Origin: Candidatus Margulisiibacteriota bacterium
GTDB taxonomy: Bacteria; Margulisbacteria; WOR-1; O2-12-FULL-45-9; XYB2-FULL-48-7
NCBI GenBank assembly: GCA_041658645.1
Contig: JBAZZV010000002.1
Coordinates: 107,907-171,906 of the forward strand
DNA: 64,000 bases
Direction: 5' to 3'
Below are positions 12,506 through 51,042 of this stretch, piece by piece (within the stretch, counting starts at the first letter, position 1; every line of letters begins with the position of its first letter). The notes under the pieces were generated by a model. It had not been told where the DNA came from and made no database searches. It saw only the letters and a list, made by a program, of their open reading frames with translations. The position numbers and the translations under genes are program-made.

Positions 12506-12566
12506 AACAAGAATGAACTCCTCAACACTGAAGACACCCAACCAAAAAAAGCCGACGGCCAGAATC

Positions 12567-12644
12567 TCCCGATGGACATTATAAATATAATAATAATGAA
12601 ATCATCGGGATCCCGGCATTCCATATTATATATTGTCGTCGGGA
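12567..12644. repeat. Double-hairpin repeat element, copy A, embedded in a T-loop of a tRNA-Thr-like remnant
   Basis: TCCCGATG...CATCGGGA and TCCCGGC...GTCGGGA inverted repeats with AT-rich loops; flanked by tcgccagTTC and GATtctggccgtcggcttttttt, matching the tRNA-Thr T-arm and acceptor 3' end. Confidence 0.6.
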
Positions 12645-12672
12645 GAACTGGCGATCAGTTGCCCCAATAAAA

Positions 12673-12745
12673 AGCCGACGGCCAGGATCGAACTGGCGAC
12701 CTGCTGTTTACGAAACAGCTGCTCTACCAACTGAGCTACGTCGGC
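12673..12745 (-). tRNA. tRNA-Thr (anticodon CGT)
   Basis: Cloverleaf read by eye: GCCGACG acceptor, GCTC/GAGC D-stem, anticodon loop TTCGTAA, T-loop TTCGATC. Confidence 0.85.
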
Positions 12746-12768
12746 CCAAACTGAGTCCCGATGCAAAA

Positions 12769-12841
12769 AGCCGGCGGAGGGGATCGAACCCACGACCTGT
12801 GGTTTACAAAACCACTGCTCTACCAACTGAGCTACACCGGC
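12769..12841 (-). tRNA. tRNA-Thr (anticodon TGT)
   Basis: Cloverleaf read by eye: GCCGGTG acceptor, anticodon loop TTTGTAA, T-loop TTCGATC. Confidence 0.85.
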
Positions 12842-15726: not shown

Positions 15727-15767
15727 GCGCTGACTTTATTATAACATAAACGGGCCCGGCCGGATTT

Positions 15768-15852
15768 TCCCGACGGACATTATTAATTTAAAATAATGGA
15801 AACGTCGGGATCCCGCCGCTCCGCTATATTAAATATAATAGTGAGGGCGGGA
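15768..15852. repeat. Double-hairpin repeat element, copy B; left boundary of AT-rich island
   Basis: TCCCGACG..CGTCGGGA | TCCCGCCG..GGCGGGA; flanked by tRNA-Asp-like fragments (cgtgacaggc anticodon segment; aaatccggccgggcccg T-loop/acceptor-like). Confidence 0.6.
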
Positions 15853-16025
15853 GAACACTCAGCATCTATCGTGACAGGCGACTCAAACCCCTCTTGAAAT
15901 AAGTGTATCACGAAGGATAACCCTGTTTCAAGGTGGTTTGAAATGGCTTTAAAGCAGTTTGATTGTGTTTGTTAAAAGATTGTTTGAAGGATATTAAGAA
16001 ATTAATAATTATGCTTGAATAGGGC

Positions 16026-20412: not shown

Positions 20413-20547
20413 ATTATGCCATCCCTATTTCAAAAGTTCTTCAATCCGAACCCTAAGTACTTTAGCGATAATCTGAATGGTTGACAAATTGAATTATACA
20501 CCCAAACAATAGTAATGCATAATAAAAGAAACTGGCCCAAAGGGATT

Positions 20548-20632
20548 TCCCCGACGGACATTAATATATAAATAATAGAAACGTCGGGATCCCGCCGTTC
20601 CACTATATCAAAATATATTAATGAGGGCGGGA
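20548..20632. repeat. Double-hairpin repeat element, copy C; right boundary of island, inserted in the T-loop of a partial tRNA-Asp duplicate
   Basis: Flanks ctgtcCcgcaggagaccgagggGTTC | element | AATccctttgggcc match tRNA-Asp from anticodon loop to acceptor 3' strand. Confidence 0.65.
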
Positions 20633-20735
20633 GAACCCCTCGGTCTCCTGCGGGACAGAACATACGAGAAGAAACTAAACTTGTTCTCCGTAGCCACGAG
20701 TCCCGACGAATAGTCGGGACGAGGGCGAAGGAGAA

Positions 20736-20811
20736 CGGGCCCGAAGGGATTTGAACCCTCGGTCTCCTGCGTGACAGGCAGGCGCGTTAAACCAGACTAC
20801 GCTACGGGCCC
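20736..20811 (-). tRNA. tRNA-Asp (anticodon GTC)
   Basis: GGGCCCG acceptor, anticodon loop CTGTCAC, T-loop TTCAAAT. Confidence 0.85.
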
Positions 20812-20939
20812 GCGCGAACCTCAACTTATAACCGATAACCGATAACTAATAACTTAGAAACTGTCACTTTATCAATTATCATTCAAAAAATTATTATACC
20901 AGCTAAAGGGGATGTTGGAAAGGTGTATTATGTAACTTT

Positions 20940-21284
20940 TTAAATTGAATTGATCAGCCCCAGGAGCATCTTCGAGATCTCTTCAAACACGGCATACAAT
21001 TCCTTTTGTTGCAGTTCGTTGATCACTTTATCATCAGATAACAAGTCGATGATCGCGACTACCTCGTAGGTTGACCCGCGCGCGATAGTAAAGAAGTTTT
21101 TCTTATCGGCGCTTGACGATTTGCCGGTTCCTTCGGCTATATTGAGAACTATGCTTAGCGCTGCCCTTTTAAGCTGATCAAAAAGGGCTTTATCGACGTG
21201 GTGGCTGTTGGCCAAAAGAGCGAATAGAAGCTTCCGTGCTTCCTTGGCCTTCTGATAAACCTTCAGTTTTTCAAAATCAAACAT
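20940..21284 (-). CDS. Four-helix-bundle protein (23S rRNA intervening-sequence / TIGR02436-like family)
   Basis: 114 aa; VLNIAEGTGKSS...FFTIARGSTYE motifs characteristic of the IVS-encoded four-helix bundle family. Confidence 0.65.
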   Translation of the reverse strand: MFDFEKLKVYQKAKEARKLLFALLANSHHVDKALFDQLKRAALSIVLNIAEGTGKSSSADKKNFFTIARGSTYEVVAIIDLLSDDKVINELQQKELYAVFEEISKMLLGLINSI

Positions 21285-21797: not shown

Positions 21798-23252
21798 ATG
21801 ATCACCAAGAGGCAAAAACAGACCCTGGACTTTATAAAAAACCATCAACTTAGGAGAGGGTATGCCCCTTCCCTTGAGGAGATCAAGGATCATCTTAAAC
21901 TTTCTTCCGTATCAACGGCACATCATCATGTTAAAGCATTGGAAGCGCTTGGATTGCTAAAAAAAAAGGAAAACCAGCCACGCGCAATTAGTCTTTATGA
22001 TAATGAACAGTTAATTAGTATGCCTTTGCTTGGAACCATTGCCGCCGGTGAACCCATTGAAGCTATTCAGGAAAAAGAAATAATTGCCATTCCCAAATCA
22101 AAATTAACTCAAAATGGTGAGTTTTACGCGCTACGTGTTTCTGGCAATAGCATGACAGATGAAAACATTAATGATGGCGATATCATTATAGTAAAAAGCC
22201 AGTCAACGGCCAATAATGGGGAAAAAGTTGTTGCCTTAATAGACAATCAAGCAGTAACCCTAAAAAAGCTGTACAAAGAAAACAAAAACATTCGACTTCA
22301 ACCAGCTAACTCAACTATGCCCCCAATGATATTCTCCCCACAAAGGGTAAATATTCAAGGAGTCGTTGTTGAGATCGTTAAGTCCGATAAACATTCGTCG
22401 CCAGGCATGAGATATTCACCTGAAAACAATTTAGCTGCTCCCCAACATCAAAGTATTAACAATTTCCTGAACAGAGTACTTCAAGGCGATTGCCTTGAAG
22501 TAATGAAAACCATGCCTCCGAAATCAATAAATATGGTTCTGTGTGATCTCCCTTATGGAAACACCCAAAACAAATGGGACAGCATTATCCCCCTTGATAA
22601 ACTATGGACTGAATATGAAAGAATAATTAAAGATAATGGTGTTATAGTTCTTACCTCACAAGGGTTGTTTACCGCCCAATTAATCCTATCCAATCCAAGG
22701 TTATTTAAGTATAAGATTATTTGGGTAAAATCTAAGCCAACTAATTTCCTTAATGCAAAGAAACAACCGCTTCGGAGGCACGAGGATATATGCATATTTT
22801 ACAAAAACCAACCCGATTATAATCCGCAAATGACTCCCGGAGAGCCTTATAACAAGGGGTTCAGGAAAAATCAGCTGACAGGCTGTTATGGGGATTTTAA
22901 GCCTGTTAAAGTTAAAAGTGATGGCCAGCGGTATCCCACAGATGTTGTTTATTTCAAAACGGCAGAGAGTGAAGGCGTTGTTCACCATCCTACTCAAAAA
23001 CCAGTCGAGCTAGGCAGATACCTAATTAAAACATTTACAAAACCAGGAGACATTATCCTCGACAATACTTGCGGCAGTGGGAGTTTTCTTGTTTCAGCCG
23101 TTCTTGAGGATCGATTGTTTATTGGTATCGAAAAAAATGAGGAAGTATTTTTGCACAAAAAGCATCATATTGACTATATTGAAATCTGCAACAAAAGAAT
23201 TAAAGAAGCAAAAAGGAAGGCCGCTGTCGAAAACAGCAGATTGTTCGCCTAA
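21798..23252 (+). CDS. Fusion protein: full-length LexA repressor (wHTH + S24 peptidase) fused to beta-class N6-adenine/N4-cytosine DNA methyltransferase
   Basis: N-terminus has the LexA cleavage site AAGEP, catalytic SGNSM and TLKKL; C-terminus has GDCLEVMKTMPPKSINMVLCDLPYG (CcrM-like DPPY region), HPTQKP and DNTCGSGS (FxGxG). Confidence 0.75.
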   Translation: MITKRQKQTLDFIKNHQLRRGYAPSLEEIKDHLKLSSVSTAHHHVKALEALGLLKKKENQPRAISLYDNEQLISMPLLGTIAAGEPIEAIQEKEIIAIPKSKLTQNGEFYALRVSGNSMTDENINDGDIIIVKSQSTANNGEKVVALIDNQAVTLKKLYKENKNIRLQPANSTMPPMIFSPQRVNIQGVVVEIVKSDKHSSPGMRYSPENNLAAPQHQSINNFLNRVLQGDCLEVMKTMPPKSINMVLCDLPYGNTQNKWDSIIPLDKLWTEYERIIKDNGVIVLTSQGLFTAQLILSNPRLFKYKIIWVKSKPTNFLNAKKQPLRRHEDICIFYKNQPDYNPQMTPGEPYNKGFRKNQLTGCYGDFKPVKVKSDGQRYPTDVVYFKTAESEGVVHHPTQKPVELGRYLIKTFTKPGDIILDNTCGSGSFLVSAVLEDRLFIGIEKNEEVFLHKKHHIDYIEICNKRIKEAKRKAAVENSRLFA

Positions 23253-27710: not shown

Positions 27711-29038
27711 CCGCCTCGCTCTACGTCCACATCCCCTTTTGCAAACAAAAGTGCAACTACTGTGATTTCGTTTCTTATGCCGGGAAGGAAAATTTCATTG
27801 ACGAGTATGTTGAGACGATGATCCGAGAATTCGAGTCCCGGTGTTCTGTGCTCTATGTTCCGTGTTCTACTGTCTTCTTCGGCGGCGGGACCCCGACCCT
27901 GCTCGAACCAAAGCATTTCGATAAAATATTATCCACATTCATTAGTCATTCGTCATTAGTCATTAGTCATTCAGAGATCTCCATCGAAGCTAATCCAGGA
28001 ACTGCCGGCAAAGCCAAGCTAAAAGCCCTTAGACAACTCGGTATCAACCGTCTCTCGATCGGCGTCCAGTCGTTCAACGACCGGCAGCTAAAGACCCTGG
28101 GGCGGATCCATGACTCCGCCACAGCTAAACGTTTTTATCAGGACGCGCGTGACGCCGGCTTCGACAATATTAATCTCGATCTGATCTTCGCCCTGCCCGG
28201 GCAGACCTTAGCTGAATGGAAACGCGATCTGGCCACGGCGATCGCGCTAAAACCAGAACATCTTTCAACTTATAATTTACAAATTGAAGAGGGAACACCT
28301 TTCTGGGAAAGGTTCAAAGAGCCCTCACCCGCTGCCGCAAACCGACGCACCCTCTCCCAGAGGGAGAGGGTAATGAGCCAAGCAGACTTGCAAAACACCT
28401 TCTCCCCCCCTCACCCGCTTACGCAAAGTGTCCCCCCTCTCCCAGAGGGAGAGGGTACTTCGCCTTTAATTCCCGTTTGCGCAACACCTTCTCCCTTTGG
28501 GAGAAGGTGCGCCTCCTTGGCGCATTGGATGAGGGGAGAGAAGGTGCATAGTTCTGGTAGAGCGGATGAGGGCCTCAGTCTCCCTTCCGAAGATGAAGAG
28601 CTGGCAATGTATGAATATGCCATCGAAGAACTGGCCGCTCACGGCTACAAACATTATGAGATCTCTAATTTTGCTAAACCGGGTTATGAATGTCAGCACA
28701 ATTTGGTTTACTGGCGGAACGAGAATTATCTCGGCATTGGCGCCGGCGCGCACTCCCATGTAAACGGCCAGCGCTGGTCTAATCCAAACTGTATCGAAAA
28801 ATACCTGGAAACCGCGACGTTTAGTCGCAGGTTTCCAGGTTCGACTGCCGACCAACGCGAAACGATCTTCCTCGGCCTCCGCCTCCTGGACGGTTTGTCA
28901 ATTAAGAAATTTAAAGGCTTTGAGGCTCAAGTCGCTGAACTGATAAAAGACGGCTTGTTAACCGAGGAAAAGGGGAATTATAAACTAACCCGGCAAGGTC
29001 TATATCTGGGCAATCTGGTCTTCGAGAAGTTCGTATAA
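27707..29038 (+). CDS. hemW: Radical SAM heme chaperone HemW (HemN-like), carrying an approximately 84 aa in-frame insertion
   Basis: [10 protein letters not shown] (CxxxCxxC); GGGTPT; C-terminal HemN domain; start ATG overlaps lepA stop (ATGA). Confidence 0.8.
27936..27974. repeat. Heptanucleotide tandem repeat CATT(A/C)GT, about 5.5 copies, inside the hemW coding region
   Basis: cattcattagtcattcgtcattagtcattagtcattcag; encodes [13 protein letters not shown]. Confidence 0.5.
28321..28573. mobile_element. MITE-like hairpin repeat element (TIR GCCCTCACC/GGTGAGGGC-like), copy 1, inserted in frame within hemW
   Basis: Contains two CCCTCTCCC-AGA-GGGAGAGGG perfect hairpins plus CACCTTCTCCC-TTT-GGGAGAAGGTG; ends gccctcaccc ... 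tggtagagcggatgagggc; homologous to the 49391-49521 copy. Confidence 0.55.
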
Positions 29039-35425: not shown

Positions 35426-35427
35426 TA

Positions 35428-35449
35428 AAAGAGAGGGACCCTCCCTTTA
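35428..35449. terminator. GC-rich near-palindrome AAAGAGAGGGACCCTCCCTTT flanked by A and T runs; likely bidirectional terminator
   Basis: Lies between convergent rsmE and the 35489-36265 gene; identical copy at 38626-38646. Confidence 0.4.
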
Positions 35450-35488
35450 AAGTATCCAAGTTATCTTTAAAGTTCGGGCCCCTGCTCT

Positions 35489-36265
35489 TTATAGAACGAT
35501 CGGCTGGCAAACTGAGAGACTGATACCCTTGGAAGTGACGGTGTTCGAGCGGACAACATTGTATCCGATCTCAAATCCGGTCTTCCCTAACCCGAGGCCG
35601 AGGTCAGCATTGATGCCAAAATAGACATCGCCGCCGAGCTTGCCGCTGGTCTGGCCGTTGCCATAAGCAACGTAGTTCAGCCCACCAGTGAGATAGCTGT
35701 CGAGACCACCCATCCACTCCGCCGGCAAACTAATGATGCCGCCGCCGTAGACTGGGACAGCCTTTAAGCCTCCTCCACCCATGACATAACCTGTACCAAC
35801 CTTGAACTTCACGGCATTGGCCGACAGGCCAACCATGGGCCCAAGACCGATAAAGTCATCCAACACCAGGTTGCCCATCGCCCCGATGGAACCGGAGAGC
35901 GATCCCTTTCCAGTGCTGATATACAGACCGGAGAGAGAAGTGTTGAGCCCCATTCCGAACAATCCAGCGGAAGCGGCCGGCTTAACGACGACCGAGGCTG
36001 GCGGAACAGGAGCGACTGGCGGTGGCGCGACTTCCAGCGAAGCTTTCAGCTTATTCCAGCGGGCCAGAGTCGCGGCTTTGTCAGCTTTCAAAATAGACAG
36101 CTTAACTGTCTGTTTAGCATTCCGAGCCTTGACTATCTTCACGTCGATCACCTTCAGGTAATCCCTGACCGCTTGTTTTTCCTCATCTATCGTCCGGCCA
36201 AAAGCAACGCTGGCCACTGAAGCCATGAAAGCCATGACCACAAAAAATATAATTACTTTCTTCAT
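35489..36265 (-). CDS. Secreted Gly-rich protein, paralog 1 (probable outer-membrane/beta-rich C-domain)
   Basis: Signal peptide; Pro-rich linker; C-domain nearly identical to the 38686-39429 product. Confidence 0.5.
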   Translation of the reverse strand: MKKVIIFFVVMAFMASVASVAFGRTIDEEKQAVRDYLKVIDVKIVKARNAKQTVKLSILKADKAATLARWNKLKASLEVAPPPVAPVPPASVVVKPAASAGLFGMGLNTSLSGLYISTGKGSLSGSIGAMGNLVLDDFIGLGPMVGLSANAVKFKVGTGYVMGGGGLKAVPVYGGGIISLPAEWMGGLDSYLTGGLNYVAYGNGQTSGKLGGDVYFGINADLGLGLGKTGFEIGYNVVRSNTVTSKGISLSVCQPIVL

Positions 36266-38470: not shown

Positions 38471-38685
38471 ATTCCCTCCTTGCAAAATATTAACGGGCGA
38501 AGATCAACGTTTGACTACAGTGAATTATATTTCACATCCCCTAGTTTTACTATATTAAGCATGCGCTTTATCCCTTGTATGTCAAGCCTTATTCTGTTTT
38601 TCGGTAAAATAATATAGCAGAAAAAAAGAGAGGGACCCTCCCTTTAAAGTATCCAAGTTATCTTTAAAGTTCGGGCCCCTGCTCT

Positions 38686-39429
38686 TTATAGAACGATCGG
38701 CTGGGAAACTGTTAGACTGATACCCTTGGAAGTGACGGTGTTCGAGCGGACAACACTGTATCCGATCTCAAATCCGGTCTTCCCGAGACCAAGGCCGAGG
38801 TCAGCCCTGATGCCATATTTGGCATCTCCACCGATCTTGCCGCTGGTCTGGCCGTTGCCATAGACAACGTAGTTCAATCCACCTGTCAGATAGCTATCAA
38901 GACCACCCATCCACTCCGCCGGCAAACTAATGATGCCGCCGCCGTAGACTGGGACAGCCTTTAAGCCTCCTCCACCCATGACATAACCTGTACCAACCTT
39001 GAACTTCACGGCATTGGCCGACAGGCCAACCATGGGCCCAAGACCGATAAAGTCATCCAACACCAGGTTGCCCATCGCCCCGATGGAACCGGAGAGCGAT
39101 CCCTTTCCAGTGCTGATATACAGACCGGAGAGAGAAGTGTTGAGCCCCATTCCGAACAATCCAGCGGAAGCGGCCGGCTTAACGACGACCGGGGCTGGCG
39201 GAACAGGAGCGACTGGCGGTGGCGGCGGTGCGATAGGAGCCGGCATGGCTTTGGCCGGAGAAGCCTTTTTCACGGCCTTCTTGACCACCTTCTTAACCAC
39301 TTTCTTCTTAACCACTTTCTTCTTGGCAACGACCTTCTTTTTAACAACGGCCGCAGCATCTGAAGAGTAGACTCCCGCAACACCGACAAAGAACGCCAAC
39401 AAAACAAATAAACCTACTAATCTTTTCAT
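38686..39429 (-). CDS. Secreted Gly-rich protein, paralog 2, with N-terminal KKKVV lysine-rich repeats
   Basis: C-domain and 3' flank about 95-100% identical at the DNA level to 35427-36020. Confidence 0.5.
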   Translation of the reverse strand: MKRLVGLFVLLAFFVGVAGVYSSDAAAVVKKKVVAKKKVVKKKVVKKVVKKAVKKASPAKAMPAPIAPPPPPVAPVPPAPVVVKPAASAGLFGMGLNTSLSGLYISTGKGSLSGSIGAMGNLVLDDFIGLGPMVGLSANAVKFKVGTGYVMGGGGLKAVPVYGGGIISLPAEWMGGLDSYLTGGLNYVVYGNGQTSGKIGGDAKYGIRADLGLGLGKTGFEIGYSVVRSNTVTSKGISLTVSQPIVL

Positions 39430-48250: not shown

Positions 48251-49402
48251 CTAAGCCCGAGGGTCAAGGAGTTTCAGCGCGTCGGCCGCTAAAAAGAGAG
48301 AACCGGCGATAACCCGCGCCTCGCCGGCTGTTTGTTTTAAAGCCGTCTTAAGCGGCAGCGGCTCGGTCCCACCCAGCTGGGTGGCGGCTTGCCGGTGGGA
48401 TGACCGGGTGATAATTATTTTTTTAGCCAGGGGGGCGATCAGCCGCAGCATCTCCGCCGCGTCCTTGTCCCCCTGCGCCCCGATGATAAAGGTGAATTTT
48501 GTGTCGGGATACTCCGCCTTCAGGGTCGCGACCAGCGTCGCCATCCCGGCCGGATTATGGGCGCCGTCCACGATGGTCAGCGGCCGGCGGGCAACGACCT
48601 GGAAACGGGCCGGCCAGTTGGTCCGGGCCAAGCCCCGCAAGATCGCCTCCTTGTCGGCCTTTATCCCGGCCAGCCGGACAGCCGCCAAGGCGCAGGCGGC
48701 ATTAATTTTCTGGTGTTCGCCGATCAGGCCACTGCTCAATCCAGCTCCCTGGCTGTTGACCTGGATCAGCACGCTCCCATTTTTCTCCGCCTGGTACTGC
48801 AGGACCTTCAAGGCCGCCGGTTTTTGTTCGCCGGTGATCACCGGCACTCGCGGCTTGATGATCCCCCCCTTTTCAATGGCGATCTTGGCCAGCGTATTAC
48901 CCAGCACCGCCTTATGTTCGAGATCAATATTGGTGATCACCGAAACCAGCGGCGTCAGGACATTGGTCGCATCAAGACGCCCCCCCAGGCCGACTTCTAC
49001 CACCGCGTAATCGATCTTCTTCTCCGCGAAATACCAAAAAGCAACCGCCGTCAGGACCTCAAAGACGGTCGGCTGTTCTGGCCAGGAACGGCTTAGCGCC
49101 TCGACCTTGGCTAAACCCCGCTTAAAGTCCGAGCGTGAAATATCACGACCATTGATTTTAATTCTTTCCCTAAAATCGAAAAGATGAGGAGAAGTATACA
49201 GCCCGACTTTATAGCCGGACTCTTTCAGGATCGAGGCGATCATCACGCAAGTCGAACCTTTGCCGTTCGTCCCGGCAACGTGGAGCGACTGGAACCGGAG
49301 CTGCGGGTTACCGAGCTCTTTCAGGAGCCGCTCGATCCGCTCTAACCCCAGGTTGATACCGAATTTATCCAGGGAAAGAAGATATTTATTCCCCTCACCC
49401 AT
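48251..49402 (-). CDS. folC: Folylpolyglutamate synthase / dihydrofolate synthase
   Basis: HVAGTNGKGST P-loop; Mur-ligase fold; start set at the ATG giving MGEGNKYL (an upstream in-frame GTG is also possible). Confidence 0.8.
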   Translation of the reverse strand: MGEGNKYLLSLDKFGINLGLERIERLLKELGNPQLRFQSLHVAGTNGKGSTCVMIASILKESGYKVGLYTSPHLFDFRERIKINGRDISRSDFKRGLAKVEALSRSWPEQPTVFEVLTAVAFWYFAEKKIDYAVVEVGLGGRLDATNVLTPLVSVITNIDLEHKAVLGNTLAKIAIEKGGIIKPRVPVITGEQKPAALKVLQYQAEKNGSVLIQVNSQGAGLSSGLIGEHQKINAACALAAVRLAGIKADKEAILRGLARTNWPARFQVVARRPLTIVDGAHNPAGMATLVATLKAEYPDTKFTFIIGAQGDKDAAEMLRLIAPLAKKIIITRSSHRQAATQLGGTEPLPLKTALKQTAGEARVIAGSLFLAADALKLLDPRA

Positions 49403-49521
49403 CTGCGCAAACACTCACACCCTCTCCCAAAGGGAGAGGGTGACTCGCACTTTTTTCCAGGCATTTTCCCCCTCTCCCTCAGGGAGAGGGGTCTTCGTTT
49501 TGGTAGAGCGGAGGTGAGGGC
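49391..49521. mobile_element. MITE-like hairpin repeat element, copy 2, intergenic; left TIR overlaps the folC start codon
   Basis: cccctcaccc...CACCCTCTCCC-AAA-GGGAGAGGGTG...CCCCCTCTCCC-TCA-GGGAGAGGGG...tggtagagcggaggtgagggc; TIRs CCCTCACC/GGTGAGGG. Confidence 0.55.
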
Positions 49522-50160: not shown

Positions 50161-51042
50161 TTATGCCCTCGGGTGCGCCTTTAAGTACATTTTCTTCAAC
50201 CGCTCGCGCGAGACGGAAGTATAGATCTGCGTCGTCGCAATATCAGCGTGCCCCAGCATTTCCTGGACCGAGCGGAGGTCCGCCCCTTTCTCCAACAGAT
50301 GGGTGGCAAAAGAATGGCGGAGGGTGTGGGGAGAAGTCTTCGACTTGACCCCGCTCCGTTTGACATATTTTTTCAGGACCAACCACAACCCCTGCCGGCT
50401 CAACCGCTCGCCGTTCTTGTCAAGGAAGAGGGCAACTTTATCTTTGATCGGGAACTGCGGCCGCCCGGCTTCCAGATAATGTTTGAGGGCGTCGAGCGCT
50501 ATCTGGCCGATCGGCACCACCCGCTCCTTCGACCCTTTGCCAAAACAGCGGACAAAAGAGACCTCCAGATTGATGTCGTCCAGGTTCAGGCCGATGATCT
50601 CCGAAGCGCGCATCCCGCTGGCGTACAGCAATTCCAAAAGGGCCGCGTCACGCAAGGCCCAAGGATCGTTGCCGCGCGGGGAAGAAACTAGCCGGGCCGC
50701 TTCGTTGATCGTCAAGGCCTTAGGAAGGCGTTTGGCTTTCTTTGGTAAATGAAAATCACCGGTCGGGTCGGTTGCCACCTTCCCCTCGCCAATCAAATAA
50801 TGGAAAAAAGATTTGAGACAGGCCATTTTCCGCTCCAGCGAGGCGGCGGAAAAACCGTGGTTGCTTAAGTAATCGATATATTTTTTAATGACCTCGCGGT
50901 CGATCTCCAACAATTCTTTCGGCCGGGTAAAACGGACAAAGTGATCAAGGTCGCGGTAGTACGCCTTGATCGTGTTGACGGCGTACCCGCGCTCGATCTG
51001 GATATAAGAGATAAAATCTTTAACGGTCGCTCTCACTCCCAT
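50161..51042 (-). CDS. Tyrosine recombinase XerC/XerD-like
   Basis: R..HxxR..Y catalytic pattern (HTLRHSFATHLL ... IYT); N-terminal SAM-like domain. Confidence 0.8.
   Translation of the reverse strand: MGVRATVKDFISYIQIERGYAVNTIKAYYRDLDHFVRFTRPKELLEIDREVIKKYIDYLSNHGFSAASLERKMACLKSFFHYLIGEGKVATDPTGDFHLPKKAKRLPKALTINEAARLVSSPRGNDPWALRDAALLELLYASGMRASEIIGLNLDDINLEVSFVRCFGKGSKERVVPIGQIALDALKHYLEAGRPQFPIKDKVALFLDKNGERLSRQGLWLVLKKYVKRSGVKSKTSPHTLRHSFATHLLEKGADLRSVQEMLGHADIATTQIYTSVSRERLKKMYLKAHPRA

Follow-up and report, generated by a model that had tools for sequence, protein, structure and literature searches.

Why should a bacterial chromosome carry a non-coding double hairpin inside the T-loop of a broken tRNA gene, close beside an intact one? 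The question is raised by the tRNA-Thr locus in a 64,000-nt stretch of a Candidatus Margulisiibacteriota genome (GenBank assembly GCA_041658645.1, contig JBAZZV010000002.1, positions 107,907 to 171,906 of the forward strand; the whole of this stretch is called the window), for which a preliminary description had proposed either a small mobile element that targets T-loops or a site for a tRNA-directed recombinase. The element belongs to a family of paired, covarying double hairpins which sit at fixed nucleotide positions in dead tRNA copies next to intact genes, and which are present at some and absent from other loci of related genomes. On balance we think it probable that it is a non-autonomous palindromic mobile repeat, inserted by a trans-acting enzyme at the apex of the T-arm, less often at other positions in the tRNA arms, and surviving only in redundant copies.

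The tRNA-Thr locus and the double hairpin

The copy that raised the question, copy A, lies 28 nt downstream of the intact tRNA-Thr(CGT) gene. The features of the locus, in the direction of transcription of the tRNA genes, are as follows (here and below a caret marks a junction between the element and its host).

12769..12841 (-), intact tRNA-Thr(TGT), found by ARAGORN and Rfam
12747..12768 (-), spacer between the tRNA-Thr genes, ttttgcaTCGGGA^CTCAGTTTG, the last bases of a deleted element (...gcaTCGGGA) and tRNA positions 11-19
12672..12746 (-), intact tRNA-Thr(CGT), functional partner of the remnant, found by ARAGORN and Rfam (70.4 bits)
12655..12667 (-), ttggggcaactga (ttgggg + caactga), between the tRNA-Thr(CGT) trailer and the left flank
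12645..12654 (-), left flank tcgccagTTC, T-stem 5' strand and T54-C56 of a tRNA-Thr copy, 10 of 10 bases identical to intact tRNA-Thr(CGT)
12567..12644 (-), copy A of the element, 78 nt, covariance-model match of 83.1 bits
12551..12566 (-), right flank GATtctggccgtcggc, 3' part of the T-loop, T-stem 3' strand and acceptor 3' strand, 15 of 16 bases identical to the intact tRNA
12550-12544, minus strand, run of seven T 3' of the right flank

Since its flanks match the intact tRNA at 10/10 and 15/16 bases, copy A sits between C56 and R57 of a tRNA-Thr 3' remnant, and the earlier statement that the element interrupts the T-loop between TTC and GAT is correct. Agreement of this order cannot be fortuitous; a blastn-short match (12549-12562) falls in the right flank region. 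The trailer tttttA lies directly 3' of tRNA-Thr(CGT) on the minus strand, and the remnant probably begins further 5' than had been described. The 'caactga' upstream of copy A corresponds to tRNA-Thr positions 25-31, and comparison with 'tttgcaTCGGGA^CAACTG' at the related loci L058 and L054 suggests that the 'ttgggg' in front of it is probably what is left, in degenerate form, of a second element (TCGGGA) joined to these positions, 3' of which part of the copy would have been deleted. The spacer at 12747-12768 aligns with complete gccgacgtag-element-ctcagttg units at the same place in L054 and L056, and is the vestige of a 5' fragment that once bore an element at G10^C11. Copy A probably represents a late stage of decay, in which a tandem tRNA-Thr copy that formerly carried two elements (at G24^C25 and C56^R57) would have lost most of its 5' part. 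A promoter and terminator scan found no terminator around copy A and one promoter-like match, which is within chance expectation.

The element is 75-90 nt long and non-coding; its first bases are always TCCCG and its last CGGGA, save for CGGGG in copy C. A pair of hairpins meets at an invariant CGGGATCCCG. Each unit, 33-45 nt long, rises from a terminal stem of 7-8 bp (TCCCGNNG / CNNCGGGA) through a small, asymmetric internal loop to an inner stem and an apex that are both AT-rich. The right half approximates the reverse complement of the left, one asymmetric unit being repeated as an inverted doublet, and both strands therefore receive almost equal scores from the covariance model (e.g. 100.4 versus 86.4 bits). 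Triplets of units were never seen among the copies, a complete unit beside a truncated second unit occurs once (L054), and a lone complete unit is represented by one unexamined pattern match (L039 694-728, 20.9 bits). Copy A has the layout TCCCGACG...GCCGGGA + TCCCGATG...CATCGGGA, in which hairpin 1 (TCCCGAC...GCCGGGA) is imperfect and is followed by hairpin 2 (TCCCGATG...CATCGGGA); with an A.C mismatch in one hairpin, it folds weakly as DNA (z = -1.9) compared to typical copies (z about -5).

The double change noticed earlier between copy A (CCCGATG/CATCGGG) and copies B and C of the window (CCCGACG/CGTCGGG) is a true compensatory change, and pairs counted over 38 copies, directly from the anchored arms as the MAFFT alignment misplaced 5' ends, show the same. 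In hairpin 1, position 6 is AT in 19 copies, TA in 10, CG in 7 and mismatched in 2, and position 7 is CG in 28, TA in 6 and GC in 4; in hairpin 2 the same positions are AT in 36, CG in 1 and TA in 1, and CG in 24, TA in 13 and AT in 1, respectively. The variable stem positions are hence Watson-Crick paired in 150 of 152 cases, by way of three to four pair types, and the RNAalifold consensus of two hairpins agrees with these counts. Conservation of the stem by compensatory change is strongly supported. The covariation shows that intrastrand pairing matters; it says nothing on whether this is as RNA, as a DNA hairpin or cruciform, or through arm-to-arm repair, so that the earlier claim of selection on the stem holds for the pairing and not for its cause.

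Conserved pairing would be expected if the double hairpin had a host function, being kept for the tRNA operons as a hairpin that serves RNase processing or stabilisation, as a barrier of terminator type in precursor transcripts or as the site of a DNA-binding protein, with the tRNA fragments incidental. We regard this as rather improbable, in part on the character of the element itself. Its G.T and A.C mismatches are balanced (6 versus 4), without the G.U bias on either strand that would betray a transcript, therefore neither strand, and hence no RNA, is favoured. No Rfam 15 family lies at the element, permissive thresholds included, as only tRNAs pass the gathering threshold and the best score at the element is 24.4 bits against a threshold of 85, and around copy A we found no terminator-like and no convincing promoter-like signal. 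The junctions lie at exact positions within tRNA sequence and the two orientations relative to the tRNA are about equally frequent (see below), the former predicted by insertion and not by function.

Insertion sites and their dead tRNA hosts

The family was collected with search patterns that specified only part of the element, with N at covarying positions and no use of the flanks. In a one-genome-per-species collection these gave 26 loci, comprising 16 true copies and 10 GC-rich coding matches without the first hairpin; the 16 are all from Margulisbacteria (WOR-1, Saganbacteria, Margulisiibacteriota) or an unclassified metagenome-assembled genome. A metagenome scan added 21 loci, all true copies, and the covariance model brought in additional, divergent ones, giving 38 distinct sequences, with all true matches in Margulisbacteria or unclassified metagenome contigs and zero pattern matches in viral contigs. 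Several loci are identical across independent assemblies, which argues against an assembly artefact. In the window the covariance model finds exactly three copies, A and the following two.

15768..15852 (-), copy B, in the T-loop of a decayed tRNA-Asp, upstream of tRNA-Lys and tRNA-Phe
20549..20632 (-), copy C, in the T-loop of a tRNA-Asp 3' fragment, flanks 20633-20652 and 20532-20548
20735-20812, intact tRNA-Asp, with copy C 103 nt downstream of the gene

Copy B is 42 nt from a tRNA gene. Further GGGATCCCG matches in the window (33154, 40637) are coding sequence and chance occurrences. Copies B and C have like junctions, GTTC^element^AAAT in tRNA-Asp-derived sequence, as had been noted for copy C, and they are mutual nearest relatives at 87% identity, lodged in T-stems from different tRNA-Asp alleles; this kinship means that the three T-loop insertions of the window are not the three independent events first supposed. 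The flanks of copy B (15853-15879, gcctgtcacg...gagtgTTC, and 15751-15767, AAATccggccgggcccg) occupy a position that in relatives holds an intact tRNA-Asp (L058) or an Asp fragment carrying the element (L017). The copy B host is the decayed original tRNA-Asp of an Asp-Lys-Phe cluster; the working tRNA-Asp of the window is 5 kb away, with copy C behind it.

Across the family, 29 of about 40 distinct insertions are at C56^R57 (GTTC^RA), approximately 14 of them in the sense of the tRNA and 15 opposite. The T-loop hosts are tRNA-Thr, Asp, Ile, Arg, Ser, Gly, Leu, Pro, Asn and Phe, plus tmRNA, and the host range at this one position is put at at least 11 tRNA identities plus tmRNA. Eight further sites are elsewhere in tRNA sequence and three are outside it.

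G10^C11: tRNA-Arg in L025; tRNA-Thr in L054 and L056
G24^C25: L054, plus stubs
D-loop: GGTTT^AAC in tRNA-Asp; CTTG^GTAG in tRNA-Pro
G39^C40: L038
Non-tRNA, one common motif GAAAAAGTG^AAATYTTCC: L012 7398-7700; L008 2150-2449; L023 412-494

The proposal of a T-loop-targeting element accordingly applies far outside the window and describes the majority of sites, but overlooks the G10^C11, G24^C25, D-loop, G39^C40 and non-tRNA targets; the three copies away from tRNA-like sequence, which had been named in advance as a refutation, do not overturn the pattern. The 10^11 and 24^25 sites face each other across a single step of the D-stem, and the elbow of the tRNA is where D-loop and T-loop sites come together, a geometry that is only a hint of recognition of a folded arm. 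Downstream of the non-tRNA target in L012 and L008 are a promoter-like sequence and a conserved transcript of about 70 nt that ends in a terminator.

There is no flanking direct repeat or target-site duplication at any of the approximately 40 junctions, and neither target-site-duplication nor serine or tyrosine recombinase junction models, checked by hand, fit the junction sequences. This bears on the view that the remnants are relic attachment sites, i.e. attL/attR-type repeats of tRNA-integrating elements (tyrosine or serine integrases), the double hairpin being the core that a recombinase binds in a miniature integrative element. Integration into tRNA genes does classically leave an intact tRNA with a 3' fragment behind it, the T-arm resembles a recombinase core site, and a Campbell-type crossover of a small fragment-element-fragment unit would give the observed order. 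However, at tRNA attachment sites the inserted DNA is bounded by tRNA direct repeats and has the integrase inside, whereas here the element interrupts one repeat instead of lying between two, with no overlap or direct repeat at it and only 7-40 nt between tRNA and fragment. In addition, types in which a 5' fragment carries the element at G10^C11 or in the D-loop are no less common. An integrase is absent near 29 of 30 loci, the exception being L039 (5301-6845), where an intact tRNA-Asp is directly adjoined at its 3' end by a large serine recombinase (Resolvase, Recombinase and zinc-ribbon domains), a point in favour of attachment sites, though a separate integrated element may use this same tRNA-Asp. 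In the window the sole integrase-family gene is 30 kb from the elements:

50164-51042 (-), XerC/D-like tyrosine recombinase (Pfam: Phage_integrase and SAM-like N-terminal domain)

The relic attachment-site reading is thus disfavoured and we judge it very improbable, and the suggested site for a tRNA-directed recombinase is unsupported, there being no direct repeats at the element and no integrase close to it.

The hosts are dead tRNA copies next to an intact gene, and they form a continuum of decay. The sampled DNA contains roughly 40 credible tRNA fragments, of which about 35 directly adjoin an element, and the nearest intact tRNA or tmRNA is usually 17-106 nt from it. Full-length hosts are seen in tRNA-Asp (L039 and L042) and a tandem tRNA-Phe copy (L054), degenerate full-length hosts in L024 and at copy B, and short remnants, with 10-30 nt to the left of the element, at copies A and C of the window. 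When the element is removed in silico ARAGORN regains a tRNA in only 3 of 39 cases (L039, L058 and L054:642), each beside an intact paralogue, which rules out an intron (group I or archaeal bulge-helix-bulge type) or split tRNA. The known bacterial tRNA introns likewise interrupt the gene at a fixed nucleotide position, but they are self-splicing group I introns of at least 200 nt in the anticodon loop (bioRxiv 10.1101/2025.07.03.662931), unlike an element of about 80 nt with no Rfam match that lies mainly in the T-loop of fragments unable to make tRNA. Retro-copying, by complementary DNA of tRNA precursors, is also ruled out, as the 5'-type duplications contain promoter DNA.

Three loci show further rearrangement of the hosts. 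In L014 (7780-7998) and L035 (2794-3057) a 5' fragment on one side and an element-bearing 3' fragment on the other enclose an intact tRNA, and in L014 both fragments derive from another tRNA-Ser allele than the tRNA between them; the tRNA genes at these loci appear to have been replaced in situ. In L017 (3300-3366) a tRNA-Asp 3' fragment without an element begins exactly at the usual insertion point (AAAAATCCGGCCGGGCCCG) and is preceded by its own inverted copy (ccggattttcgattcgaaaaatccgg), which could be a hairpin-type footprint of element loss.

Movement between loci and the candidate enzyme

Orthologous tRNA-Thr loci were reached by homology search with the adjoining TPR protein, which has no exact counterpart on record and whose identity to that of the window is given for each.

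L054, neighbour 83% identical: four elements around two tRNA-Thr genes
L056, neighbour 56%: the 10^11 unit only, nothing after tRNA-Thr(CGT)
L058, neighbour 56%: a 25-76 copy with the element in its T-loop behind tRNA-Thr(CGT), a 'TCGGGA' stub in front
L059 and L060, neighbours 54% and 53%: neither fragment nor element

In L054 5' fragments carry the element at 24^25 and 10^11 and 3' fragments carry it in the T-loop, such that each tRNA-Thr gene is bracketed by elements on both sides. The locus holds four elements there and one each in L056, L058 and the window, at positions that differ by genome. The same is seen at other tRNAs: the tRNA-Phe site occupied in L054 and the tRNA-Ser(TGA) site occupied in L009 are both empty in the window. 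In one and the same upstream tRNA-Asp duplicate the element is in the T-loop in L039 and L042 and in the D-loop in L017 and L038, therefore at this locus insertion came after duplication. Copies in tRNA-Asp (L039), tmRNA (L040) and tRNA-Gly (L028) are 93-94% identical, compared to a family mean of 79%, and this identity across hosts, together with the kinship of copies B and C across Asp alleles, points to copying between sites.

These data are consistent with the mobile repeat that we favour. It would be inserted without target-site duplication and in either orientation at fixed positions of tRNA and tmRNA genes, chiefly C56^R57 (GGTTC^RAnYC), by a trans-acting enzyme that recognises the element hairpins and a tRNA arm, the arm probably as an extruded hairpin or single strand. 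Insertion into a needed tRNA gene would be lost by selection, leaving elements in redundant copies, whether duplicates in tandem or close by or an original gene replaced in function by a paralogue, and the dead copy would then erode by deletion until the element and its immediate T-stem and acceptor flanks are left beside the intact gene.

Several observations weigh against such a repeat. No transposase, RAYT or integrase adjoins any element (the L039 serine recombinase aside) or is found in the 64-kb window as its partner, which weakens the case for mobility in trans. Neither an excision junction nor polymorphism within a population was seen among the copies, and the secondary sites have no obvious common sequence motif. 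Fragments and elements co-occur almost strictly, with clean loci having neither, a pattern that simple survivorship does not predict and that requires the added assumption that spare copies are quickly occupied. Finally, between L054 and L056 the orthologous 10^11 copies share 86% identity, against 56% for the adjacent protein, and the spacer around them cannot be aligned. The element is thus more conserved than inert selfish DNA would be expected to be, being constrained or homogenised, or having a host function. A host function also gains from the element persisting at copy B while the flanking pseudogene decays, and from the bracketing of both L054 tRNA-Thr genes; that relatives lack the element at the same loci (L059 and L060, and the empty tRNA-Phe and tRNA-Ser sites of the window) speaks against it.

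The enzyme was sought by Pfam analysis of 20 ORFs (open reading frames) adjacent to elements and by inspection of 66 ORFs within 600 nt of one. RAYT is absent from the ORFs within 0.6-1.3 kb of the element at 27 loci and from the 62 ORFs of the window, and there is no Y2 HUH transposase ORF in the sampled DNA; PHROGs was run on all 62 window ORFs, where our reading covers 25 of the 68 matched families, and Pfam on the ORFs of integrase size, and the only recombinases from the whole search were the XerC/D-like one and the serine recombinase of L039. The sole recurrent neighbour is an ORF of 83-84 residues with a GIY-YIG domain (PF01541, E = 1e-17), located between the element-bearing tRNA copy and the intact tRNA, which is tRNA-Asp in L017, L038 and L039 and tRNA-Pro in L028/L043.

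L017 2739-2975, GIY-YIG ORF
L038 1785-2033, GIY-YIG ORF
L039 7008-7250, GIY-YIG ORF
L028 268-519, GIY-YIG ORF, its end overlapping the 5' end of tRNA-Pro

At these loci the tRNA promoter is duplicated. SegB, a free-standing GIY-YIG homing endonuclease of T4-like phages (T4/T6), prefers to cut within tRNA genes at RAWTSGAAC, which is the T-loop motif GTTCSAWTY read on the opposite strand, and its activity drives segmental, tandem amplification of tRNA loci (PMC13096335). By analogy, cuts made in tRNA genes by a small GIY-YIG enzyme, at the T-loop motif and also within the D-arm, would be repaired with local duplication of the tRNA, and an element would be captured or copied into the cut from another element-bearing tRNA copy via short T-arm homology. 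As the T-stem is itself an inverted repeat either orientation would be possible, and the element would destroy the cleavage site of that copy; element and fragment would arise together, the element being the cis part or immunity scar of a homing-type system and no transposon. The co-occurrence of fragments and elements, and clean loci with neither, agrees with this, as does the inclusion of promoter or trailer DNA in the duplications, which makes them DNA-level events. Yet the GIY-YIG ORF is nearby in only 4 of about 30 element-bearing loci and in the window there is none. It encodes, on a bacterial chromosome, a bare catalytic domain without the DNA-binding domain of the phage protein, which for its part comes with no palindromic element. 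Homologues are widespread (Patescibacteria, Bacteroidota) with tRNAs nearby in one of four contexts checked, making the link to tRNAs local and not general, and at the tRNA-Asp locus insertion followed duplication. Nuclease-driven duplication, the chief rival to our reading, is possible, if on the whole unlikely.

A bolder version would make the element the cis module of a chromosomal nuclease system aimed at tRNA genes. A minimal GIY-YIG or other structure-specific enzyme would read folded tRNA-gene DNA (hairpin, cruciform or cloverleaf-like), cut the T-loop apex and one D-stem step and provoke duplicative repair, the element being copied into the cut, where it would mark and immunise the spent copy. 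This we put forward as a speculation, and a rather improbable one.

Relation to known repeats and significance

In form the element is closest to the REP doublets (REPINs). Like REP, BIME and REPIN repeats it is composed of imperfect palindromic units of about 40 nt in inverted doublets that make two hairpins or one long one, and it is non-coding, lineage-specific and kept as a family with conserved pairing. However, REP units carry a conserved unpaired GTAG or CGTC tag at one end (PMC3733652), for which there is no counterpart here, the units beginning TCCCG and the GAYG/CRTC being base-paired in the stem and covarying. Nor is the element dispersed behind ORFs, as 37 of about 40 sites are in tRNA-derived sequence at fixed nucleotide positions, and the gene of RAYT, the HUH transposase that mobilises REP repeats and is typically flanked by them, was not seen near it in the sampled DNA.

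The IS91 family (IS801, IS1294, IS91) inserts by rolling circle next to GTTC/CTTG without target duplication (bioRxiv 10.1101/2025.01.24.634351). Here too GTTC abuts the element at 29 sites and CTTG at the tRNA-Pro D-loop site, there is no duplication and the ends are palindromic. These ends are symmetric (TCCCG/CGGGA) and inserted in both orientations, whereas IS91 ends are asymmetric (oriIS, terIS and a terminal cleavage tetranucleotide) and oriented, and a bare tetranucleotide cannot explain the restriction to tRNA loops. IS200/IS605-derived elements insert in one orientation 3' of a fixed tetra- or pentanucleotide and have subterminal hairpins with guide sequences; our element goes in both ways, at some sites without GTTC, and the feet of its hairpins coincide with its ends. 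It shares terminal inverted repeats with classical, DDE-derived MITEs (miniature inverted-repeat transposable elements), which it does not resemble in leaving no target-site duplication. The Rickettsia palindromic elements and the double-hairpin elements of fungal mitochondria, small hairpin repeats that lodge and persist in conserved genes and RNAs, are alike in form only, the mitochondrial ones also in having a double hairpin. Their hosts, and apparently their sequences, are unrelated to ours, and they are tolerated in functional genes, in contrast to an element that is found only in non-functional tRNA copies; we know of no comparable single-nucleotide tRNA target described for them. No bacterial repeat with a T-loop target was found in the literature searched, which is weak evidence as the coverage was incomplete.

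Other features of the window are listed here for completeness.

21798-23252 (+), an unusual single ORF fusing LexA DNA-binding, Peptidase_S24 and N6/N4 DNA methylase domains, beside the tRNA-Ser cluster
20940-21284 (-), 23S_rRNA_IVP (four-helix-bundle) ORF between tRNA-Ser(GCT) and tRNA-Asp
28322-28462 and 49392-49497, four copies of another palindromic repeat, CCCTCTCCC-NNN-GGGAGAGGG, with a common 5' flank
35427-35726 and 38624-38923, 300-nt direct repeat of 92% identity, 3.2 kb apart, over two similar minus-strand ORFs

The 23S_rRNA_IVP ORF adds to the class of small ORFs found lodged in clusters of RNA genes, and a homologue with 57% identity (L013 2864-3208) is 165 nt from a copy of the element. 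The CCCTCTCCC-NNN-GGGAGAGGG repeat (repeat families D5 and D6) is a second small repeat family, unrelated to the first, and the direct repeat is probably a paralogous gene pair.

Bacteria commonly carry small palindromic repeats, for few of which insertion rules and enzymes have been worked out. The nucleotide-exact target at C56^R57, with secondary sites to either side of a single D-stem step and in the D-loop, is an unusually clean handle on target choice, and hints at recognition of a folded arm of the tRNA gene. The family explains the tRNA fragments that litter tRNA loci across this candidate phylum, and it provides markers for the duplication, replacement and decay of tRNA genes, such as in the window, where the original tRNA-Asp of the Asp-Lys-Phe operon is dead. 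On the practical side, annotation of tRNAs in such genomes will be misled by the elements, and assemblies will break at the tRNA loci. If true, the GIY-YIG link would join phage-type homing-endonuclease biology to the evolution of chromosomal tRNA genes, and the cis module of a nuclease system would be a bacterial counterpart of SegB-driven tRNA amplification, a transposition-like process in which the target is set by tRNA architecture instead of a DNA word.

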